From Bacteroidales bacterium (GTDB lineage Bacteria > Bacteroidota > Bacteroidia > Bacteroidales > P3), in assembly GCA_045597945.1 (NCBI GenBank), contig JAZLLD010000055.1, forward strand, positions 1,985-65,984: 64,000 nt of DNA, read 5' to 3'. Below, piece by piece: positions 2,166-13,038 of this stretch. The first letter of the stretch is position 1, and each line of letters opens with the position of its first letter. Under the pieces are notes generated by a model. The model did not search any database. It saw only the letters and a list, made by a program, of their open reading frames with translations, and was not told where the DNA came from. Both the position numbers and the translations under genes were made by a program.

Positions 2166-2495
2166 CTAAATTTCCGTGTATTTCTTTGCCGATCCTTTGG
2201 CTTTATCCACTGGATATTTTTCGGCATTTCGAGCAATCTTGGCCAGACAAATGTCCTTGACATCCAGATTGTATTTCATGGCAATGTGGAACGCATAATT
2301 AAAAACATCGGCCAATTCCTCCTTCACCTTATCCAGGTCCACATCCTCGGCCGACTTCCACAAAAAAGCCTCATTCAGTTCGGCGGCCTCGATACTCAAG
2401 GCCAACGCCAAATTCTTGCCATCATGGAACTGTTCCCAATCTCGCTCATCCGTAAAACGGCGCAAAGCTGCCATAACCTCTTCAATCTCAGTCAT
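2166..2495 (-). CDS. MazG-like nucleotide pyrophosphohydrolase (all-alpha NTP-PPase)
   Basis: 109 aa. The pattern RRFTDERDWEQFH...NLALALSIEAAELNE...EELADVFNY is typical of small MazG/dCTP-pyrophosphatase-like proteins. ATG at 2495. Own TAnnTTTG box at 2553-2560. Confidence 0.75.
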   Translation of the reverse strand: MTEIEEVMAALRRFTDERDWEQFHDGKNLALALSIEAAELNEAFLWKSAEDVDLDKVKEELADVFNYAFHIAMKYNLDVKDICLAKIARNAEKYPVDKAKGSAKKYTEI

Positions 2496-2660: not shown

Positions 2661-3893
2661 TTATTCCAAACCAATCGATTTCTTCTTATTCAAATGCTCC
2701 AGAACCTTTCCAAGATGATATTCAACTACTTTGTTTTCAGCATCATAAACAATATCTGTTATTTGGATTAGCGCGGTTTCTCTATCCGTTGCATATCCCA
2801 CCCCCAGGCGCAAAATATCGTATGGTCGCAAATATCGCTTGCCATCAGCCGGGTCTAAATATGTATATCTGCTAATTGTGGTTTGTTTCAATTCTCTGTA
2901 TTCCACCTTCTTCTCTCCGCTGATAATTGCATCAAAATACACCCTTTCAATCGGCAATGTTAAAACCTTGAATCCTGTCAAATCGAAAGACGACCTCTCC
3001 CCTATTACAACACGTTCCAAACACTGCAATTTGCTGTTATACATATAGTTCACTATACTCCTATCCACAATCTTCTTCACAATCAAGTTTATCACCTTCA
3101 GCGGCACCACATACCATTCCTTAGGTTCATGCTCCACACCTTTCGTGTCCTTAACTCTTACATGAAATCTAGCTTCCTCTAACACCTGATGTATCAGATT
3201 TTCAAGCGTATGCGAATTCATATTCACCACCTTATATGTAGCCACAACCTCCACACCAGCCATCAGATATGTAGGATCATTCTCAGCATTGGCAATCCTT
3301 TCCTCCACAGTATTGGTAGTAAATCCTATCTTATATAAATCTGCCTGACTAGCAATGGCCGCATCTTCCGACAGCGATTTCAGCACATATATGTACCCCG
3401 TAATCTCGTCACTTTTTGTCAATTCAGAATTCTTTGTAAGCGAATCGCTTTGCTCTTCTTCTGTCTGGGTAATAATATAGCCGTTCAGCGACACATTCTT
3501 TCTCAGTGTCGACAAATATTCATCTTGCTCTGTTCCATTCTCATAAATACACCGTGTCCTAGCATTTCGCATACCATTCGAACCTTTTGAATACTCGCCT
3601 ATTCGTTCCAAATAAACAATAGTTCCGTCAACCACATAGAAATTGCCCTCTGAGAAATTCTCCGATTTTCCCGACTTCAGCAAAATGCGCTTCCCATCCT
3701 TCAGCTCCTGCCTTACTTTGGCAAACAAAGGCTCATAATCCTCAAAGTTCTCACAACGAACTCTTTGTGCCACATGGTCAGCCTTCTTTTTTGCCGACTT
3801 AGCCTTCTGCATATCTTCCGGAACATCAAATAGGCTAGCCATAGTTTCGTCTATTTCCAATAGCGGATCGTTCAAAATGTCGTCTAGATTCAT
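2661..3893 (-). CDS. T5orf172/Mug113 (GIY-YIG superfamily) domain protein with C-terminal ASCH/PUA-like domain
   Basis: 410 aa. Central block GYIYVLKS...LYKIGFTTNTVEERIANAE...EWYVVPL matches the T5orf172 signature. The C-terminal VYFDAIISGEKKVEYRELK...YDILRLGVGY resembles ASCH/DUF3850-type PUA-like folds. ATG lies 2 nt after the upstream stop. Confidence 0.7.
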   Translation of the reverse strand: MNLDDILNDPLLEIDETMASLFDVPEDMQKAKSAKKKADHVAQRVRCENFEDYEPLFAKVRQELKDGKRILLKSGKSENFSEGNFYVVDGTIVYLERIGEYSKGSNGMRNARTRCIYENGTEQDEYLSTLRKNVSLNGYIITQTEEEQSDSLTKNSELTKSDEITGYIYVLKSLSEDAAIASQADLYKIGFTTNTVEERIANAENDPTYLMAGVEVVATYKVVNMNSHTLENLIHQVLEEARFHVRVKDTKGVEHEPKEWYVVPLKVINLIVKKIVDRSIVNYMYNSKLQCLERVVIGERSSFDLTGFKVLTLPIERVYFDAIISGEKKVEYRELKQTTISRYTYLDPADGKRYLRPYDILRLGVGYATDRETALIQITDIVYDAENKVVEYHLGKVLEHLNKKKSIGLE

Positions 3894-3895
3894 AT

Positions 3896-4150
3896 CTACA
3901 AAATATTACTCGTGTCGTAAGGTTCCAACAATTCTTTTTCTTTGCGCAAAGCCGCCAATGCTCTGCACAGCATCTTCTCAGCCAAGTCGCCGTTGGCTTG
4001 TGGCTCTCTTCCATGCGCTGCAATCCAGTCTGCCACCTCCTGCAACTTCTGCACCTTGCGGTCGTCAGCCGTCATCGGTTGCGGCTTCAACTTCACATCC
4101 GCCAGCAGCGGATCGTCAAATATTTCCAACAATTCTTTCGGCCAATCCAT
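3896..4150 (-). CDS. small hypothetical protein (84 aa) of the MTase-helicase operon
   Basis: Its ATG (4148-4150) overlaps the helicase stop (4150-4152) as TAATG. It shares an N-terminal (I/L)x(D/N)DPLL motif with the next protein. Family not recognised. Confidence 0.5.
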   Translation of the reverse strand: MDWPKELLEIFDDPLLADVKLKPQPMTADDRKVQKLQEVADWIAAHGREPQANGDLAEKMLCRALAALRKEKELLEPYDTSNIL

Positions 4151-6168
4151 TACAATTCATCATTATAGTCCAACCCCTTCAATCTTCTCAACTTCAAGTT
4201 TACAAGTTTCTGGAAGGCTGCCGCCAACTCCCTCACCTTGGGGTCGGGGTCGTCAGCCGATGGCTTTTGGCCATCATGCTCTTCCAAATATTTCTTATAA
4301 GGTCCTTGAAACAACATCACGGCCTGCTCCATCGTCATATCTATCTTCATCTCTGCCAAGGTGTCCTGAATCACTCTCAGCACCTCGGCATCCACATTCT
4401 TCGACACAATCTCGTATGCCCGCTGGAATGGATTGATAGACTCTATCAAGTTGATATGCAGCTTGCTCAAGTCAATCATTCGGTTCGTCAGTTTCAGGAA
4501 TCTGTTGCCTTCGCTTTCCGTGTCCTCGCCATTACCAAATTTGCTCACATCAATGGCATTGCCGTCCTTATCCACCACCTCATTGCTCTTGAACAGAATA
4601 TTCAGCATTGTCCTATGCGACACGGCTTCCACATCATCATCCGTCAGCTCAGGGTATGTCTCCCTCACAATCTTAGGAATCAACACCTTAGTTATCGTCT
4701 CTGCGGTAGTGTTCCCACTGATGGCCTTCTGTATATGCACATCCTGCAATATTGTAGCCGTCAGGTCATCCAGTTGCTCATCCACAATTTGCTTAGCCTT
4801 CACGCTTCCCAGCGGCTTCAATCCTTCAACCACTACCGTCCTTACCACGTCCATACCTTCCAGCACCTTAATACCTTCTAGCTTAGTATGGAAATGCCAC
4901 TGTGGTGCCATCACTTGCTCCATAAGCAGCGACGCTGTGATAGCTTTCAAAAAGTCGTTCACCGCCACCTTCACATCCGGCTGTTCGGCATCAGGCATGG
5001 CAATCATATTCACAAACCTTGCTGTGCTCTTGCCTTCGCAGTCGCGTGTGCACCTTCCGATAATCTGCACAATCTCTGTCAGCGAACCCCTCACGCCTAT
5101 GGTCAGACACATCTCACACCATGCCCAGTCGAAACCCTCTTTGGCAGTTCCTAGGGCAATAATGATGTCCATGTCCTCAGCCCGGGTCATGTTTTGCAGA
5201 TAGCCATACACATGATTCCTCACCTCTGGCGCATCTTCCACCAAGTCAGCCACTTTCAGCACCCTGCCGTCAGGTGTTCGCATCTCGTAAATACCATTAT
5301 CCCTCCTCACCTCCGTACCTATATAGGCCATAATGTCGGCCACCTCTTGATATTTCGACCCCGTGCTGGCTCGGCTATTCACACTCGGAATATGGATGAT
5401 AGTCTTCTTCGTAGTGTCAAGCACCTCGCCTATATGGTCCAAATACGAACCCGAATAGAAATGATAGCCCAAAACCAAGTTTTTCAAATATTTATAGCCG
5501 TTCAACTGCTGATAGTAGTTGTATGTCACCGGGGTAAATCTGGCCTCGTCCTCTGCCCGCAGCACAGGCACACCGTCGCCTCGGAAATACGAACCAGTCA
5601 TGGCCACGATATGCGCCGTCGAATTGTTCATCACCCTTCTCACAATCTCGCCCAATCCGCTTTCAGCATCGGCACTCGTGTGGTGGAACTCATCTATGGC
5701 CAATAAACAGTTGTCAAACCGATTATCGTCTATCATCTTCATACCGTTGCGCAGCGTGGCATGAGCGCATATCAAAATCCTCTCTTGGCAATCATCGCGC
5801 ATAAACTCGCAGAATCGGCCGGCCTTGTCGGTCTCATTCTCTACATCGCATAGATTAAAGTATGGCTTCACTTTCCAATCGTCAAAGAAGCCAAAATCTG
5901 TTAGTTGCGTATCTTTAAACGAGCGACCAATACTCTTTTCCGGCACAGCCACCACCACCTTTTTCAGCCCCTGATTTCTCAGCTTGTCCAAAGCTATAAA
6001 CATCAGTGCGCGACTCTTGCCGCTGGCGGGGGGCGCTTTGATTAGCAGAAAACGTTCGTTGCGCTGGGCGTAGGCCTTGGCCTGCATCTCGCGCATACCC
6101 AGTTCGTTGGTCAAACTGCTGCTCCCTTTTTGCGAATAGTTCACTTGTATAGTCAGATTATCTTTCAT
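4150..6168 (-). CDS. SF2 (DEAD/DEAH, Res-like) helicase/ATPase
   Basis: 672 aa. Walker A APPASGKS, motif II DEFHH, motif III MTGS, motif VI QIIGRCTRD. The about 230-aa C-terminal region is unassigned. No nuclease motif seen by eye. Confidence 0.85.
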   Translation of the reverse strand: MKDNLTIQVNYSQKGSSSLTNELGMREMQAKAYAQRNERFLLIKAPPASGKSRALMFIALDKLRNQGLKKVVVAVPEKSIGRSFKDTQLTDFGFFDDWKVKPYFNLCDVENETDKAGRFCEFMRDDCQERILICAHATLRNGMKMIDDNRFDNCLLAIDEFHHTSADAESGLGEIVRRVMNNSTAHIVAMTGSYFRGDGVPVLRAEDEARFTPVTYNYYQQLNGYKYLKNLVLGYHFYSGSYLDHIGEVLDTTKKTIIHIPSVNSRASTGSKYQEVADIMAYIGTEVRRDNGIYEMRTPDGRVLKVADLVEDAPEVRNHVYGYLQNMTRAEDMDIIIALGTAKEGFDWAWCEMCLTIGVRGSLTEIVQIIGRCTRDCEGKSTARFVNMIAMPDAEQPDVKVAVNDFLKAITASLLMEQVMAPQWHFHTKLEGIKVLEGMDVVRTVVVEGLKPLGSVKAKQIVDEQLDDLTATILQDVHIQKAISGNTTAETITKVLIPKIVRETYPELTDDDVEAVSHRTMLNILFKSNEVVDKDGNAIDVSKFGNGEDTESEGNRFLKLTNRMIDLSKLHINLIESINPFQRAYEIVSKNVDAEVLRVIQDTLAEMKIDMTMEQAVMLFQGPYKKYLEEHDGQKPSADDPDPKVRELAAAFQKLVNLKLRRLKGLDYNDEL

Positions 6169-6172
6169 AATA

Positions 6173-8926
6173 TCATTTCTTAGCTTTGGTCATTTTTTCA
6201 TATAGTTTGAAGAGGCACTCCAGTCTGGCCTCATCGTTGGCAAACGGATAGCCCGGATAGCAGCTCTCCACCACATCGTCCAACTTCTGGTGAGCCTCAC
6301 GCAATGGCTCGGGCATCTTGTCGGGGTCGTAAAGATCGGCAAGAGTTGCGCCAGGATAGTCCTCGCGTGTCAGCAACACCTCCTCAGCTGCCGCTTCAAT
6401 CTCTTTCTTCTTCGTTTCGGTCAGTTTGGGAAATGGGAAGGAGTTGTAACAGAGGCTAGTATATCGATAATCAGTCTTCAACTTTCCTCCAATTGTCTTC
6501 ATCCATACCATACTCATTAATGATGTACACACTCCGAACACCCAGATAGGACAAGATTGAATCATATACATGGCATTTGTAACAACCATCTGAGTATTAG
6601 CGTATCCCATTGGGATATACAATCTATTTTCAGATGAAGTAGACGGAATCACAAGCGTACAGTCATCACAAGAAATGAATTCTCTAAATTGATAAGGTTT
6701 CACCGCAAGGGCATTAGCTCCCTCATCAGAACTAGACAATCTCATTTTTTTTGTTTTTTCAACTCTTTCATAAATAAACGAATATTTTAATGCATCTTTT
6801 TCATCTTCATCTGAGATCCACAAACAATATCTTATATTTCCTTTTATATAATCCGCCGCACTATATAATTCTTTAATATACTTATCATTGCCTATCTCAT
6901 TTATAAGTTCGTCTTTTTCGCTCAATGACAATATTAAATTACCACCATCATAAGGCATACACCCTCTTATGATAATAGGCAAACTTGATATAGGTTTTGT
7001 TTGTTTAAACACTACAAGTTGCGCACCGTCTGTTAAATATGGCGATATTGAATTTGCATATCTTTTTTCATTACCCACAAACAAAACCTTTTGTTTATTG
7101 ACGCAAGAAAGCCCAACAATTACACATATAACAGCAGCATTTTTTCTTGCATTATTTCTCCATTTAAATGAAGTATATGCAAAATCAATATTTACACCAG
7201 ATTTATATATTGCCGTCCATAATGGTTCAACCATCTCCCCTTGACAAATTGAATTAGTACTCACAAAAGCACATTTTGATTTAGTCTTTTTGATATATTC
7301 AGCACCTTTAATAAACCAAACACCAATATAATCTATTTTTTTGTATCCTTTATATTTACCAATGGACACTTTCATGTCGTTTTTTTGTTCTGATGTTTGT
7401 AAGCTAACACCCAAATACGGCGGATTGCCAAACACAAACACTTCTTCATCTTTGGTATGGGGGCAGACTTCGTTCCAATCCATACGACACGCATTGCCAA
7501 GTCTGATTTGGGTGATGTTTTGCAGAGGCAGCGCATGGGTGTTGATGCCAAAGTCTTTCATCAACTTCCTATTCATCTGATGCTGTGCCAACCATAGCGA
7601 CAGCATGGTCATCTCATGCGGAAAGTCCTGCAACTCTATGCCATAGAACTGCTGCAATGTAATGACCGATGAATCCATCTGCGTCAGCAAACCATATTGG
7701 ATAGTGCATTCTTGCATCAGCTTCAAGATTTCCATCTCCAGCAATCTCAACCGCTTGTAGGTGATAATCAAGAAATTGCCACTGCCACATGCGGGGTCGA
7801 AGAATTTCATCTTGCTCATACGCTTCAGCAGTTTTTGGCAACTCTGCATCACGGGCTTACATTCTTGCTCATACTGATTGCCGCTACTGATGCCCAAATC
7901 TCTGCGCTCTTTGATGCCGCTATGTACATCTTTTATCTTTTTAAATTCTTCTTGCAACTCATCCATAAACAGCGGATTAATCACCTTCAGGATGTTAGGC
8001 ACACTGGTATAGTGCATTCCCTGGTTGGCTCTCACTTCGGGGTTGACTACGGCCTGTATCATGCTGCCAAAGATATCGGGGTTGATTTCTTTCCAGTCCA
8101 GGCTGCCGCAGTCCACCATAATCTTGCGAGCCCGGCGGCTAAGTTTCGGAATCTGAATAGGATGGCTGAACAGTCCGCCATTGACATAGGGGAAATGCTT
8201 TACCACAGCTTTGGTTTCTTTGGTGCGACTCTTCTCCGGGATGTCCATAATGGCAAAAGCCTCAGACAGATAATCACTCAGGTCGCTACCATCTTCCAGC
8301 GTATAGCTCTTGATACTGTTGGTGAAAAGGTTGTCGGGGAAGATGCCGGTATCTTCGGCAAAGTAGCAGAACAAAAGCCTGGAGATGAATATATTGAGGT
8401 CGTGGAGGTCGGTGTCGCTCGTAAACTCATTGAAGGCACGTATCTCATCGTGCAGCTTGGCAAGCTTTTCGGCTGCCTTCACATCGGCGGGACTTTCCTC
8501 CACATTATGCACCCGCTCCACATCGGCCAAGGGATAAAAGAAATTGAAATCGTAGCATAGGCCAGCCAGTCGATTCTCGTAGGTGTCGTTCTCGCGCAGG
8601 TCGTAGGCTAGCATGGTCTCGCCGTCGCTCACCATGGCTATCTTTGGTTTGGCGGCCAGCACCCTGGTGTCGGCTTTCATCTGCTCCAGTTCGGCAGTCA
8701 TATCCTTGGCCGTTGAGGTGCGGTAGGCGATTAAGTTTTTGATTAGCAGACCGTCGTAGCTTTTCACCACTCCTTTGCCCTCTCGCCAGCGGCGGATGTC
8801 GGCATCGGTCTTGCCAAAACTATAGAGCAGCCGAAATGGAACATCGTCGGCTGCCACAGTATTGTCTTTGAAACATTTGAGTCTTTGTTCTATCTCCTGA
8901 TAGCCAAGCTGTGTTTTCTTTGCCAT
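6173..8926 (-). CDS. MmeI-family (Type IIL/ISP-like) gamma-class N6-adenine DNA methyltransferase with TRD
   Basis: 917 aa. Motif I FFDPACGSGNFL, motif IV FGNPPYLG, upstream GMHYTS motif. C-terminal LADLYDPDKMPEPLREAHQKLD...EARLECLFKLYEKM tail is typical of MmeI-like enzymes. AT-rich central TRD. Confidence 0.85.
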   Translation of the reverse strand: MAKKTQLGYQEIEQRLKCFKDNTVAADDVPFRLLYSFGKTDADIRRWREGKGVVKSYDGLLIKNLIAYRTSTAKDMTAELEQMKADTRVLAAKPKIAMVSDGETMLAYDLRENDTYENRLAGLCYDFNFFYPLADVERVHNVEESPADVKAAEKLAKLHDEIRAFNEFTSDTDLHDLNIFISRLLFCYFAEDTGIFPDNLFTNSIKSYTLEDGSDLSDYLSEAFAIMDIPEKSRTKETKAVVKHFPYVNGGLFSHPIQIPKLSRRARKIMVDCGSLDWKEINPDIFGSMIQAVVNPEVRANQGMHYTSVPNILKVINPLFMDELQEEFKKIKDVHSGIKERRDLGISSGNQYEQECKPVMQSCQKLLKRMSKMKFFDPACGSGNFLIITYKRLRLLEMEILKLMQECTIQYGLLTQMDSSVITLQQFYGIELQDFPHEMTMLSLWLAQHQMNRKLMKDFGINTHALPLQNITQIRLGNACRMDWNEVCPHTKDEEVFVFGNPPYLGVSLQTSEQKNDMKVSIGKYKGYKKIDYIGVWFIKGAEYIKKTKSKCAFVSTNSICQGEMVEPLWTAIYKSGVNIDFAYTSFKWRNNARKNAAVICVIVGLSCVNKQKVLFVGNEKRYANSISPYLTDGAQLVVFKQTKPISSLPIIIRGCMPYDGGNLILSLSEKDELINEIGNDKYIKELYSAADYIKGNIRYCLWISDEDEKDALKYSFIYERVEKTKKMRLSSSDEGANALAVKPYQFREFISCDDCTLVIPSTSSENRLYIPMGYANTQMVVTNAMYMIQSCPIWVFGVCTSLMSMVWMKTIGGKLKTDYRYTSLCYNSFPFPKLTETKKKEIEAAAEEVLLTREDYPGATLADLYDPDKMPEPLREAHQKLDDVVESCYPGYPFANDEARLECLFKLYEKMTKAKK

Positions 8927-11982: not shown

Positions 11983-13038
11983 TCAGCCGAGGCCATTGAG
12001 TTTCATTGCATTGACAATATGTGCTTTATGGCGTTCGATCAGGGTGTCGGGGCTGAGCACACGGCAGCAATCGCAGTAGTACAGGAGAGAGCCCTCAAGT
12101 TCCTGGTTGACTTTGACATTTAGTTTCACGTCAAGCACTCTCTCGCCATCCACTTCAATCCATTTGGCTTTCTGCGAACCATGCAGCGGACAGTTTTCAA
12201 CATATGGCGCAGCCCAACCAACAAATTGCAGATGAATATCTTCCGGAGGGTTGGGAGTGTTAATGACACCGATGAAATCCTCAAAATAAGACTCCGGGTC
12301 GAAATTGGCATTGATATAAGGGTCGGTGCAGGGCTTGATGGCCTGGATGCGGTCCATGGCAATGGTCTGGATTTCATTAGGTTTCTCGGTCGTGACACCG
12401 AAAGCATACCAGAAGCCGCGGAACTGCTTGAAATAGCACGGATGGAAGTGATATGTGCAATGTCCGCGCTTGAAACAGCCATATTCAATGGTCAGCGGCT
12501 GGTGGTCTTGGATGGCTGTGAAAATCTGCTCGAAATGCTTGTAGACCTCCATGGCACGGGGACCGCCTAAGTCGGGGTTGACATCCAGCTGGATGCGAGG
12601 CACATTGCTTTTGTGTTTGGAAATGGCGCTCATGCCGTTGAACGACTCCTGAATCCACGCAATCTGGGGCAGCCCCATGATAACGTCGAGACATTCCATG
12701 GCCGAGGTAATGCAGACCACCTGCTTGGTTGTCAGCGGCATGTGGTCGATACTGAAACTGGGGTCGTGGTAGCGGTAGGCCGTGTAGGGGCGGTTGTGGC
12801 CGTGCTCATCGGGGCGGATGATGCGGAAAGTGTCGATCTCGGCATCCAAACCATCTGGCGACCGCATATAGGCAATGTCCACATAGAGCTGGCGCTCGCC
12901 CACGGGCTTTGGATTGGCAGTCTCGCTAAGGCCGCGGTTAACCTCTTCCAAGAGGTCGGCAAGGGTATAATCACGCGAGATGTCGCGGAAACATTTGTCG
13001 AGCAAACGATAGCGCTGGATAGCTTTATTAGAGACCAT
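11983..13038 (-). CDS. WYL-domain transcriptional regulator (HTH-WYL)
   Basis: 351 aa. N-terminal HTH-like KAIQRYRLLDKCF...LADLLEEV. WYL-type motif FRGFWYAFG. Confidence 0.65.
   Translation of the reverse strand: MVSNKAIQRYRLLDKCFRDISRDYTLADLLEEVNRGLSETANPKPVGERQLYVDIAYMRSPDGLDAEIDTFRIIRPDEHGHNRPYTAYRYHDPSFSIDHMPLTTKQVVCITSAMECLDVIMGLPQIAWIQESFNGMSAISKHKSNVPRIQLDVNPDLGGPRAMEVYKHFEQIFTAIQDHQPLTIEYGCFKRGHCTYHFHPCYFKQFRGFWYAFGVTTEKPNEIQTIAMDRIQAIKPCTDPYINANFDPESYFEDFIGVINTPNPPEDIHLQFVGWAAPYVENCPLHGSQKAKWIEVDGERVLDVKLNVKVNQELEGSLLYYCDCCRVLSPDTLIERHKAHIVNAMKLNGLG

Follow-up and report, generated by a model that had tools for sequence, protein, structure and literature searches.

The closest described relatives of the system analysed here are the DnmA-YeeB-YeeC cluster of Bacillus subtilis and its homologues. 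Morgan 2009 (PMC2731913) distinguished two groups of MmeI homologues, one with a PD-ExK motif and a second without it, the second differing from MmeI in the first ~100 residues and being "invariably" flanked by genes for a DEAD helicase (YeeB-like) and a GIY-YIG protein (YeeC-like). The same work speculated that this second group represents a Type I-like system with single-strand modification. YeeA has since been renamed DnmA and the conserved synteny has been confirmed (Nye 2020, PMC7261158; Fernandez 2023, PMC9973331), and in V. crassostreae 7F1_18 it was only yeeAB that gave resistance to one phage group (bioRxiv 10.1101/2021.05.05.442762). Cassettes of the YeeABC type are very common. Our subject is one such cassette in a Bacteroidales bacterium, found in a stretch of 64,000 nucleotides from assembly GCA_045597945.1 (contig JAZLLD010000055.1), which we call the window, and above all the 410-residue protein encoded at positions 2661 to 3893, in which an ASCH domain has been added to the end of a YeeC-type nuclease. 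The YeeABC-type system is already known; no description of a YeeC with an added ASCH domain was found in the literature searched.

We put at about 0.72 the probability that this gene encodes the nuclease subunit of the known DnmA(YeeA)-YeeB-YeeC cassette, a system resembling restriction-modification (R-M), and that the ASCH domain is an accessory module of that subunit. The four open reading frames (ORFs) of the cassette lie head to tail on the minus strand, with the helicase starting 4 nt past the methyltransferase stop, a 1-nt overlap between helicase and small module, and a spacer of 2 nt before the 410-residue ORF. Within the latter the parts follow one another as DPLL peptide, conserved N-domain, T5orf172/GIY-YIG domain and ASCH domain. 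The features, with the evidence for each in brackets, are as follows.

6173..8926, minus strand: MmeI-like N6-adenine methyltransferase with target-recognition domain (TRD), DnmA/YeeA type, 917 residues (Pfam)
4150..6168, minus strand: YeeB-type superfamily 2 (SF2, DExH) helicase, 672 residues (Pfam, motifs in the translation)
3896..4150, minus strand: split-off N-terminal module of canonical YeeC, 84 residues (homology to fused YeeC)
2661..3893, minus strand: YeeC-type nuclease subunit, 410 residues, ATG start (ORF, Pfam, locus comparison)
3414..3893, minus strand: N-terminal region of YeeC, residues 1-160, a second DPLL copy followed by a helix and beta-rich domain (conservation across phyla)
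3069..3398, minus strand: T5orf172 (GIY-YIG superfamily) nuclease domain, residues 166-275 (Pfam PF10544)
2691..2969, minus strand: ASCH-superfamily (PUA-like beta-barrel) domain, residues 309-401 (profiles, AlphaFold and Foldseek)
2895..2918, minus strand: ASCH signature GxKxxExR, here G326-E-K328-K-V-E331-Y-R333 (alignment of the 46-sequence family)

The identity of the system follows from its larger subunits and from the order in which the genes recur. The 917-residue protein matches all five MmeI domains in Pfam, namely MmeI_N, MmeI_hel, MmeI_Mtase (E 1.4e-99), MmeI_TRD and MmeI_C, and its methyltransferase signatures DPACGSGNF and NPPY are intact. It aligns to the MmeI structure 5hr4 in the PDB with an E-value of 7.8e-175, the alignment beginning only at residue 93. 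Searched alone, the first 140 residues gave no match to MmeI, and no conserved D...ExK was found in residues 1-92 of the window's protein and 49 homologues from helicase-linked loci. PADLOC labels the protein as a Type IIG enzyme, but we reject a stand-alone Type IIG enzyme for this gene because the nuclease motif is missing and the partner genes are conserved. The 672-residue protein matches ResIII (E 8.9e-8) and DEAD (E 3.1e-7) in Pfam, and the GKS and DEFH motifs can be read in its translation.

For the comparison of loci, at least 558 YeeC relatives were confirmed in species-representative genomes and the 80 best were kept. Together with three further loci they make a set of 83, which was scanned with the proteins of the window and with a hidden Markov model of the ASCH family. 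In those of the 83 loci that are long enough to show it, a scope that holds for everything said here on gene order, the order methyltransferase, helicase, small module and YeeC is conserved, and full-length helicase homologues lie directly upstream of the small module and YeeC. The same cassette order occurs in Bacteroidota, Pseudomonadota, Campylobacterota, Bacillota, Chlamydiota, Spirochaetota and Patescibacteria.

Several details of these cassettes can be recorded beside this. The G+C content of the window falls to 0.33 at positions 6500-7500, the target-recognition part of the methyltransferase, from ~0.49 on either side, a pattern compatible with exchange of the specificity module. In many related cassettes additional genes stand between methyltransferase and helicase, with gaps of 0.6-3 kb (for example L004, L022 and L036), one of them being a 209-residue ORF without a Pfam family (L001:7148-7777), at a place where the window has only the 4-nt spacer. 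On the A. baumannii plasmid pABTJ1 (L084, NC_017848.1) the cassette is apparently cut by ISAba1 upstream of a 468-residue "hypothetical protein", apparently a helicase remnant. The YeeC of that plasmid is also split, into a 95-residue ORF and a 304-residue GIY-YIG ORF, and has no ASCH domain.

The nuclease itself is recognized most clearly by its central domain. The first-pass annotation, made from the letters of the stretch alone, had placed a T5orf172 block at about residues 165-290, and the profile search agrees with it: PF10544 matches residues 166-275 with an E-value of 1.4e-15 (58.1 bits against a cut-off of 20), and MUG113 matches residues 187-275 with an E-value of 2.6e-14. Residues G166, I168, Y169, K188, G190, R199, E259 and W260 are invariant across diverse homologues. 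When the GIY-YIG positions were scored in 18 diverse and 29 closer homologues, the first element was GYIY with Y169 invariant and the second YKIG with Y187 conserved in at least 90% and K188 and G190 invariant, while R199 and E259 were invariant as well. We take Y169, Y187, R199 and E259 to have the catalytic roles that general knowledge of GIY-YIG enzymes would give them. With these signature residues intact, the domain is predicted to be a competent nuclease. More than 4,200 full-length YeeC relatives were found. The precomputed Pfam domains of all 120 homologues listed are T5orf172 (PF10544) and MUG113 (PF13455) only, and the label given to YeeC by standard annotation, "GIY-YIG nuclease family protein", likewise misses the ASCH domain. 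The 410-residue protein had no match in NCBIfam, and in PADLOC only weak matches to PDC-S57.

In front of the nuclease domain, the first ~150 residues had been left unassigned in the first-pass annotation. This was right to the extent that no Pfam family covers them, but the first ~160 residues are an N-domain that YeeC proteins conserve across phyla. For residues ~40-145 we found no Pfam family, no PDB sequence match and no credible Foldseek match. In the AlphaFold model of the full-length protein, confidence expressed as predicted local distance difference test (pLDDT) is 73-85 at residues ~40-140 and 80-89 in the C-terminal part. Foldseek also returned eIF5A-like matches for this model, which we reject as an artefact of the multi-domain query because the root-mean-square deviation is 13-16 Å over ~170-200 columns.

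The 84-residue ORF just upstream, which has no Pfam family, is homologous to the N-terminal ~90 residues of fused YeeC proteins (for example P0132, P0135, P0149 and P0159). In most lineages YeeC begins with this small module as part of the same protein, of ~383-412 residues, and stops directly behind T5orf172; as canonical fused references we used the Clostridium nigeriense locus L068 and others. Prevotella-type loci encode the module separately, in an ORF of 72-100 residues. Since the small ORF is part of YeeC elsewhere, we regard the 84-residue ORF as a detached YeeC head and not as a new adaptor. A peptide of the type ELxxIFxDPLL opens both the 84-residue ORF (3896-4150, minus strand) and the 410-residue ORF (3850-3893, minus strand). 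A strict pattern finds it in 48 of 73 small modules and at 58 of 82 N-domain starts, and the fused YeeC proteins of other lineages contain two copies of the DPLL peptide, one opening the small module and one opening the N-domain. The repeated peptide may be a docking motif.

As judged from sequence profiles and structure prediction, the C-terminal ~100 residues of YeeC are a genuine ASCH-superfamily domain. With the whole 410-residue protein as query, Pfam ASCH (PF04266) matches residues 317-387 with an E-value of 0.0057 and 17.8 bits against a cut-off of 21.2; with the isolated domain (residues 296-410) the score rises to 20.6 bits and the E-value is 7.6e-4. An exhaustive search gathered a family of 46 such domains, 18 of which match Pfam ASCH at an E-value of 0.01 or below (best 1.8e-5). 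The profile of this family finds the P. furiosus ASCH protein 1xne with an E-value of 0.011, in an alignment that runs across the GxKxxExR signature. Within the 46 sequences E331 and R333 of the signature are invariant, and G326 and K328 are conserved in at least 90%. In the published description the ASCH signature follows helix alpha1 and precedes strand beta2, at the cavity (PMC6803910), and in the AlphaFold model of the domain it falls between a helix at H22-30 and a strand at E35-39, which is the same alpha1-beta2 position.

The predicted structure points the same way. The C-terminal barrel of ASCH or PUA-like type suspected by the first-pass annotation is borne out by the domain-only AlphaFold model (pLDDT 90.3, predicted template modelling score 0.79), by the ASCH identity of all of its ten best PDB matches in Foldseek (probability 1.00, template modelling scores of 0.39-0.69) and by the presence of GxKxxExR. 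The set of ten consists of 3iuw, the Zymomonas mobilis ASCH protein ZmASCH in five entries (5gus, 5guq, 5y6b and 5y6c among them) and 1wk2; sequence identity to the PDB ASCH matches is 11-19%. The next fold matches are the ASCH or PUA-like structures 2z0t, 1xne and 1s04, together with Lon N-domains. The 50 best PDB fold matches include no structure named as SRA, EVE or YTH, and on this ground we reject the identity of the domain as a reader of one of those three families.

Against the predicted structures of viral proteins in BFVD the domain gave 12 matches with E-values of 0.001 or below, the names of which include activating signal cointegrator, ASCH domain-containing and DUF3850 domain-containing proteins; the best is an 84-residue protein (A0A7M1RV17) of the uncultured crAss-like phage cr130_1. 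The domain had been labelled as ASCH/DUF3850-type, and only the first half of this label is seen in the Pfam scan, which lists ASCH and not DUF3850 at E-values up to 1. DUF3850 in place of ASCH was rejected for the same reason, and the DUF3850 names among the viral neighbours indicate that the two labels overlap at the level of the fold. Because the sequence profiles, the motif, the PDB folds and the viral folds converge, we consider the ASCH assignment safe. Small stand-alone proteins with the ASCH fold are common in phages, and the crAss-like group infects Bacteroidales.

The distribution of the domain tells us how it relates to the rest of the protein. Of 82 YeeC proteins, 48 have it. A tree built from the N-domain and the T5orf172 region places all 48 in a single Bacteroidales clade, which comprises 64 rows and has a value of 99 in the Shimodaira-Hasegawa-like approximate likelihood ratio test (SH-aLRT); the domain is absent from the 18 rows outside this clade. 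At least five gains or losses are needed on the tree, and YeeC proteins without ASCH (L038 with L040, L044 and L049) are nested among those that bear it. A YeeC homologue was found in 233 plasmid records, and in no case does the match extend over the ASCH part; all stay below 80% coverage of the query, and the best plasmid matches listed end at residues ~286-306. From this distribution in the sequences compared, the ASCH domain is a Bacteroidales-specific accretion (gut, rumen) that has occasionally been lost secondarily. The domain is not needed by the core system, because most YeeC proteins are without it and some have lost it. Among the 48 ASCH-bearing proteins, mean pairwise identity is 0.60 in ASCH, 0.586 in T5orf172 and 0.50 in the N-domain. 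Being as conserved as the nuclease domain, the ASCH domain is functional and kept under purifying selection.

Further members of the ASCH family, of 140-402 residues, are encoded just downstream of YeeC-ASCH on the same strand in four Prevotellaceae loci.

L006:11176-11598: downstream ASCH-family gene
L007:10762-11970: downstream ASCH-family gene
L039:10276-11301: downstream ASCH-family gene
L043:10363-10887: downstream ASCH-family gene

Some of these proteins have two ASCH-like stretches, and the one at L007 scores 28.8 bits against Pfam ASCH. Given these genes, the ASCH module may also be supplied in trans or be expanded. Two distant ASCH-like relatives (P0174 and P0207) have the domain at the C-terminus of longer proteins, the front parts of which resemble, by eye, regulators of the helix-turn-helix/WYL type.

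The mechanism that we propose starts from the methyltransferase. The MmeI-like subunit would recognize an asymmetric site and methylate one strand of it, marking the DNA as self. At an unmethylated site the methyltransferase would recruit the helicase and YeeC, with the DPLL peptides as possible docking elements, and the GIY-YIG domain would cut the DNA in the manner of Type I or Type ISP enzymes. Reading of the methylation state would fall to the methyltransferase pocket itself. It is this pocket that senses methylation in Type I, Type ISP and MmeI enzymes, and since it reads methylation, YeeC would normally need no reader of its own. The ASCH domain, which is probably nucleic-acid-binding, would then most likely be an accessory surface on the nuclease for nucleic acid or for a flipped base, tuning how the substrate is engaged. 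It would tune and not make the basic decision between self and non-self, because most YeeC proteins work without it. If the domain is a mere DNA clamp, its addition would be a case of routine domain accretion.

This differs from the interpretation first offered for the locus, which saw an unusual logic in a modification-reading effector placed in the operon of a modification-writing methyltransferase and suggested, among other things, a dual Type II/Type IV-like system. Neither is supported in the form given, because the operon is a known cassette of the DnmA-YeeB-YeeC type, the ASCH domain is missing from most YeeC proteins and so lies outside the core design, and the association of ASCH with N6-adenine methyltransferases has already been published.

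There are also weaknesses in our own reading of the gene as the nuclease subunit of a DnmA-YeeB-YeeC cassette with an accessory ASCH module. The query's own Pfam ASCH score stays just below the curated cut-off, and in the PDB Foldseek gives only modest E-values (2e-3). The AlphaFold confidence of the full-length model is low over the T5orf172 part, with pLDDT of 50-60. The B. subtilis cluster did not restrict transformation and gave no protection against three phages (PMC7261158, PMC9973331), and no biochemical activity has been reported for any YeeB or YeeC protein. Finally, what the ASCH domain binds is pure inference.

A more elaborate version of the mechanism gives the domain a part in the decision to cut. 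The complex would then be an enzyme with two readouts, in which the methyltransferase and its TRD check the sequence and its N6-methyladenine (m6A), and the ASCH domain inspects a flipped base, either self m6A or a phage hypermodification, before the DNA is cut. We regard this as a tentative idea and a rather unlikely one. If it were true, it would be the first case of an ASCH domain reading DNA modification in an ATP-dependent system with a methyltransferase, and the small ASCH proteins of phages, that of the crAss-like phage included, might be competitors or decoys. More generally, base reading by the domain, if true, would be the first defined role of ASCH in DNA restriction and would give a handle on the conflict between phage and host in gut Prevotella and Bacteroides.

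Either half of this idea can also be taken alone. In one form, which takes up the self-mark reading considered in the first-pass annotation, the ASCH domain would read the m6A made by its own system and so provide a second, independent control of methylation, by which the GIY-YIG nuclease is held back or set free on self DNA. ASCH domains have been predicted to bind modified bases and are found fused to, or in operons with, N6A methyltransferases (Iyer 2015, PMC4738411), and the ASCH cavity with its GxKxxExR signature has been likened to the m6A pocket of YTH (PMC6803910). The conservation of the domain, as strong as that of the nuclease domain, speaks for it as well. What makes a self-m6A reader unlikely in our view is that most YeeC proteins have no ASCH domain and some have lost it, that the methyltransferase pocket already senses methylation in Type I, Type ISP and MmeI enzymes, and that no binding of m6A DNA has been reported for any ASCH domain in the literature searched.

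In the other form, the ASCH domain would be a Type IV-like arm, sensing hypermodified phage bases and thereby letting the nuclease also attack DNA that the methylation-sensitive arm of the system misses. Sensors of the PUA superfamily, ASCH included, and GIY-YIG nucleases are both listed for modification-dependent nucleases, and an arms race would be consistent with the small ASCH-fold proteins of phages and with the ASCH paralogues adjacent to some cassettes. We nevertheless think such an arm improbable. In every locus of sufficient length the ASCH-bearing nuclease sits in a methyltransferase-helicase cassette and no stand-alone pair of ASCH and nuclease was seen, the 50 best PDB matches name no SRA, EVE or YTH structure, and the literature searched holds no experimental case of an ASCH reader in a restriction enzyme.

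It could also be asked whether the cassette is a relic, in which the methyltransferase alone is active, as an orphan epigenetic enzyme, and YeeC-ASCH currently has no function. That the methyltransferase is such an orphan was the conclusion for the B. subtilis dnmA-yeeB-yeeC cluster, which showed neither restriction nor phage defence. We hold a relic to be very unlikely here: no ORF is broken and all lie close together, the catalytic and signature residues do not vary, the full-length relatives number in the thousands (more than 4,200, as given above), the ASCH domain is under purifying selection, and yeeAB defends in Vibrio.

Least probable of all, and only barely worth considering, is that the ASCH domain is itself catalytic beside the GIY-YIG domain, as a ribonuclease (RNase) like ZmASCH or as a base-modifying or deacylating enzyme like BapA, YqfB or EOLA1, since, although the closest solved folds include the ribonuclease ZmASCH, EOLA1 and BapA are enzymes with this fold, and the K, E and R of the motif can be counted as invariant (K328 at 90% or more in the family alignment), GxKxxExR is also conserved in non-enzymatic ASCH domains and thus is no argument for catalysis, a restriction nuclease has no obvious need for a second catalytic activity, and most of the family does without the domain.

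The genes around the cassette appear to be of less consequence. A gap of 165 nt separates yeeC from an ORF of 109 residues downstream (2495..2166, minus strand), the product of which is a nucleotide pyrophosphohydrolase of the MazG-like type (Pfam E 4.9e-14). The 83 related loci contain no homologue of this ORF, and about 50 nt before its start there is a TAnnTTTG-like box (TATTTTTG). With 0 of 83 loci, the 165-nt gap and a box of its own, the gene was rejected as a fifth member of the cassette, to which it probably has no relation. A search for terminators between yeeC and the MazG-like gene gave none, so read-through into the latter may occur. Further away, beyond glyA, positions 11983-13038 (minus strand) encode a 351-residue protein with a WYL domain (E 8.7e-7) and a weak match to WCX.

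Comparison with known systems helps to place the cassette and its unusual subunit. With MmeI (Type IIL/IIG, 5hr4) it shares homologous methyltransferase, target-recognition, helical spacer and C-terminal domains. MmeI cuts by means of its own N-terminal PD-ExK domain and has neither a helicase nor a GIY-YIG partner, whereas the window's protein has both partners and no conserved motif of this kind, and its first ~92 residues are unrelated to MmeI in sequence. With the Type ISP enzymes (LlaGI, LlaBIII) and Type I R-M systems it shares the combination of a methyltransferase with TRD, an SF2 motor and a nuclease. Type ISP enzymes methylate a single strand of an asymmetric site. They are one polypeptide with an Mrr/PD-ExK nuclease, in contrast to the separate subunits and the GIY-YIG nuclease found here, and unlike the window's cassette neither Type ISP nor Type I systems have an ASCH domain.

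The pairing of a PUA-superfamily domain with a nuclease recalls the Type IV enzymes with their SRA, EVE and YTH sensors. Modification-dependent nucleases are described as using PUA-superfamily sensors, among which ASCH is counted, and GIY-YIG is among their nuclease types; Type IV enzymes have no cognate methyltransferase. By contrast, the YeeC of the window belongs to a cassette with methyltransferase and helicase, as it does in every locus of sufficient length, and for this reason we reject its classification as a Type IV enzyme, a self-contained sensor with nuclease. The domain also differs from the sensors just named in being ASCH proper.

Compared with the solved ASCH proteins (E. faecalis 3iuw, ZmASCH, T. 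thermophilus 1wk2, P. furiosus 1xne and human EOLA1), the window's domain has the same PUA-like beta-barrel and the same GxKxxExR between alpha1 and beta2. Those proteins stand alone and act on RNA or free nucleosides, whereas the window's domain forms the C-terminus of a DNA nuclease subunit. The activities described for ASCH proteins in the literature searched are varied: ZmASCH is an RNase (PMC6803910), EOLA1 a deacetylase of N4-acetylcytidine (ac4C) and BapA an enzyme that modifies 5-hydroxymethylcytosine (5hmC).

The closest agreement remains that with B. subtilis DnmA-YeeB-YeeC and its homologues. There too an MmeI-like methyltransferase with TRD and without PD-ExK is found with a DEAD/DExH helicase and a T5orf172/GIY-YIG protein, in identical gene order and on the same strand. 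Where the window departs from this plan is in YeeC itself, which is canonically a single protein of ~383-412 residues and here is divided into ORFs of 84 and 410 residues, the larger of which carries the ASCH domain at its C-terminus.

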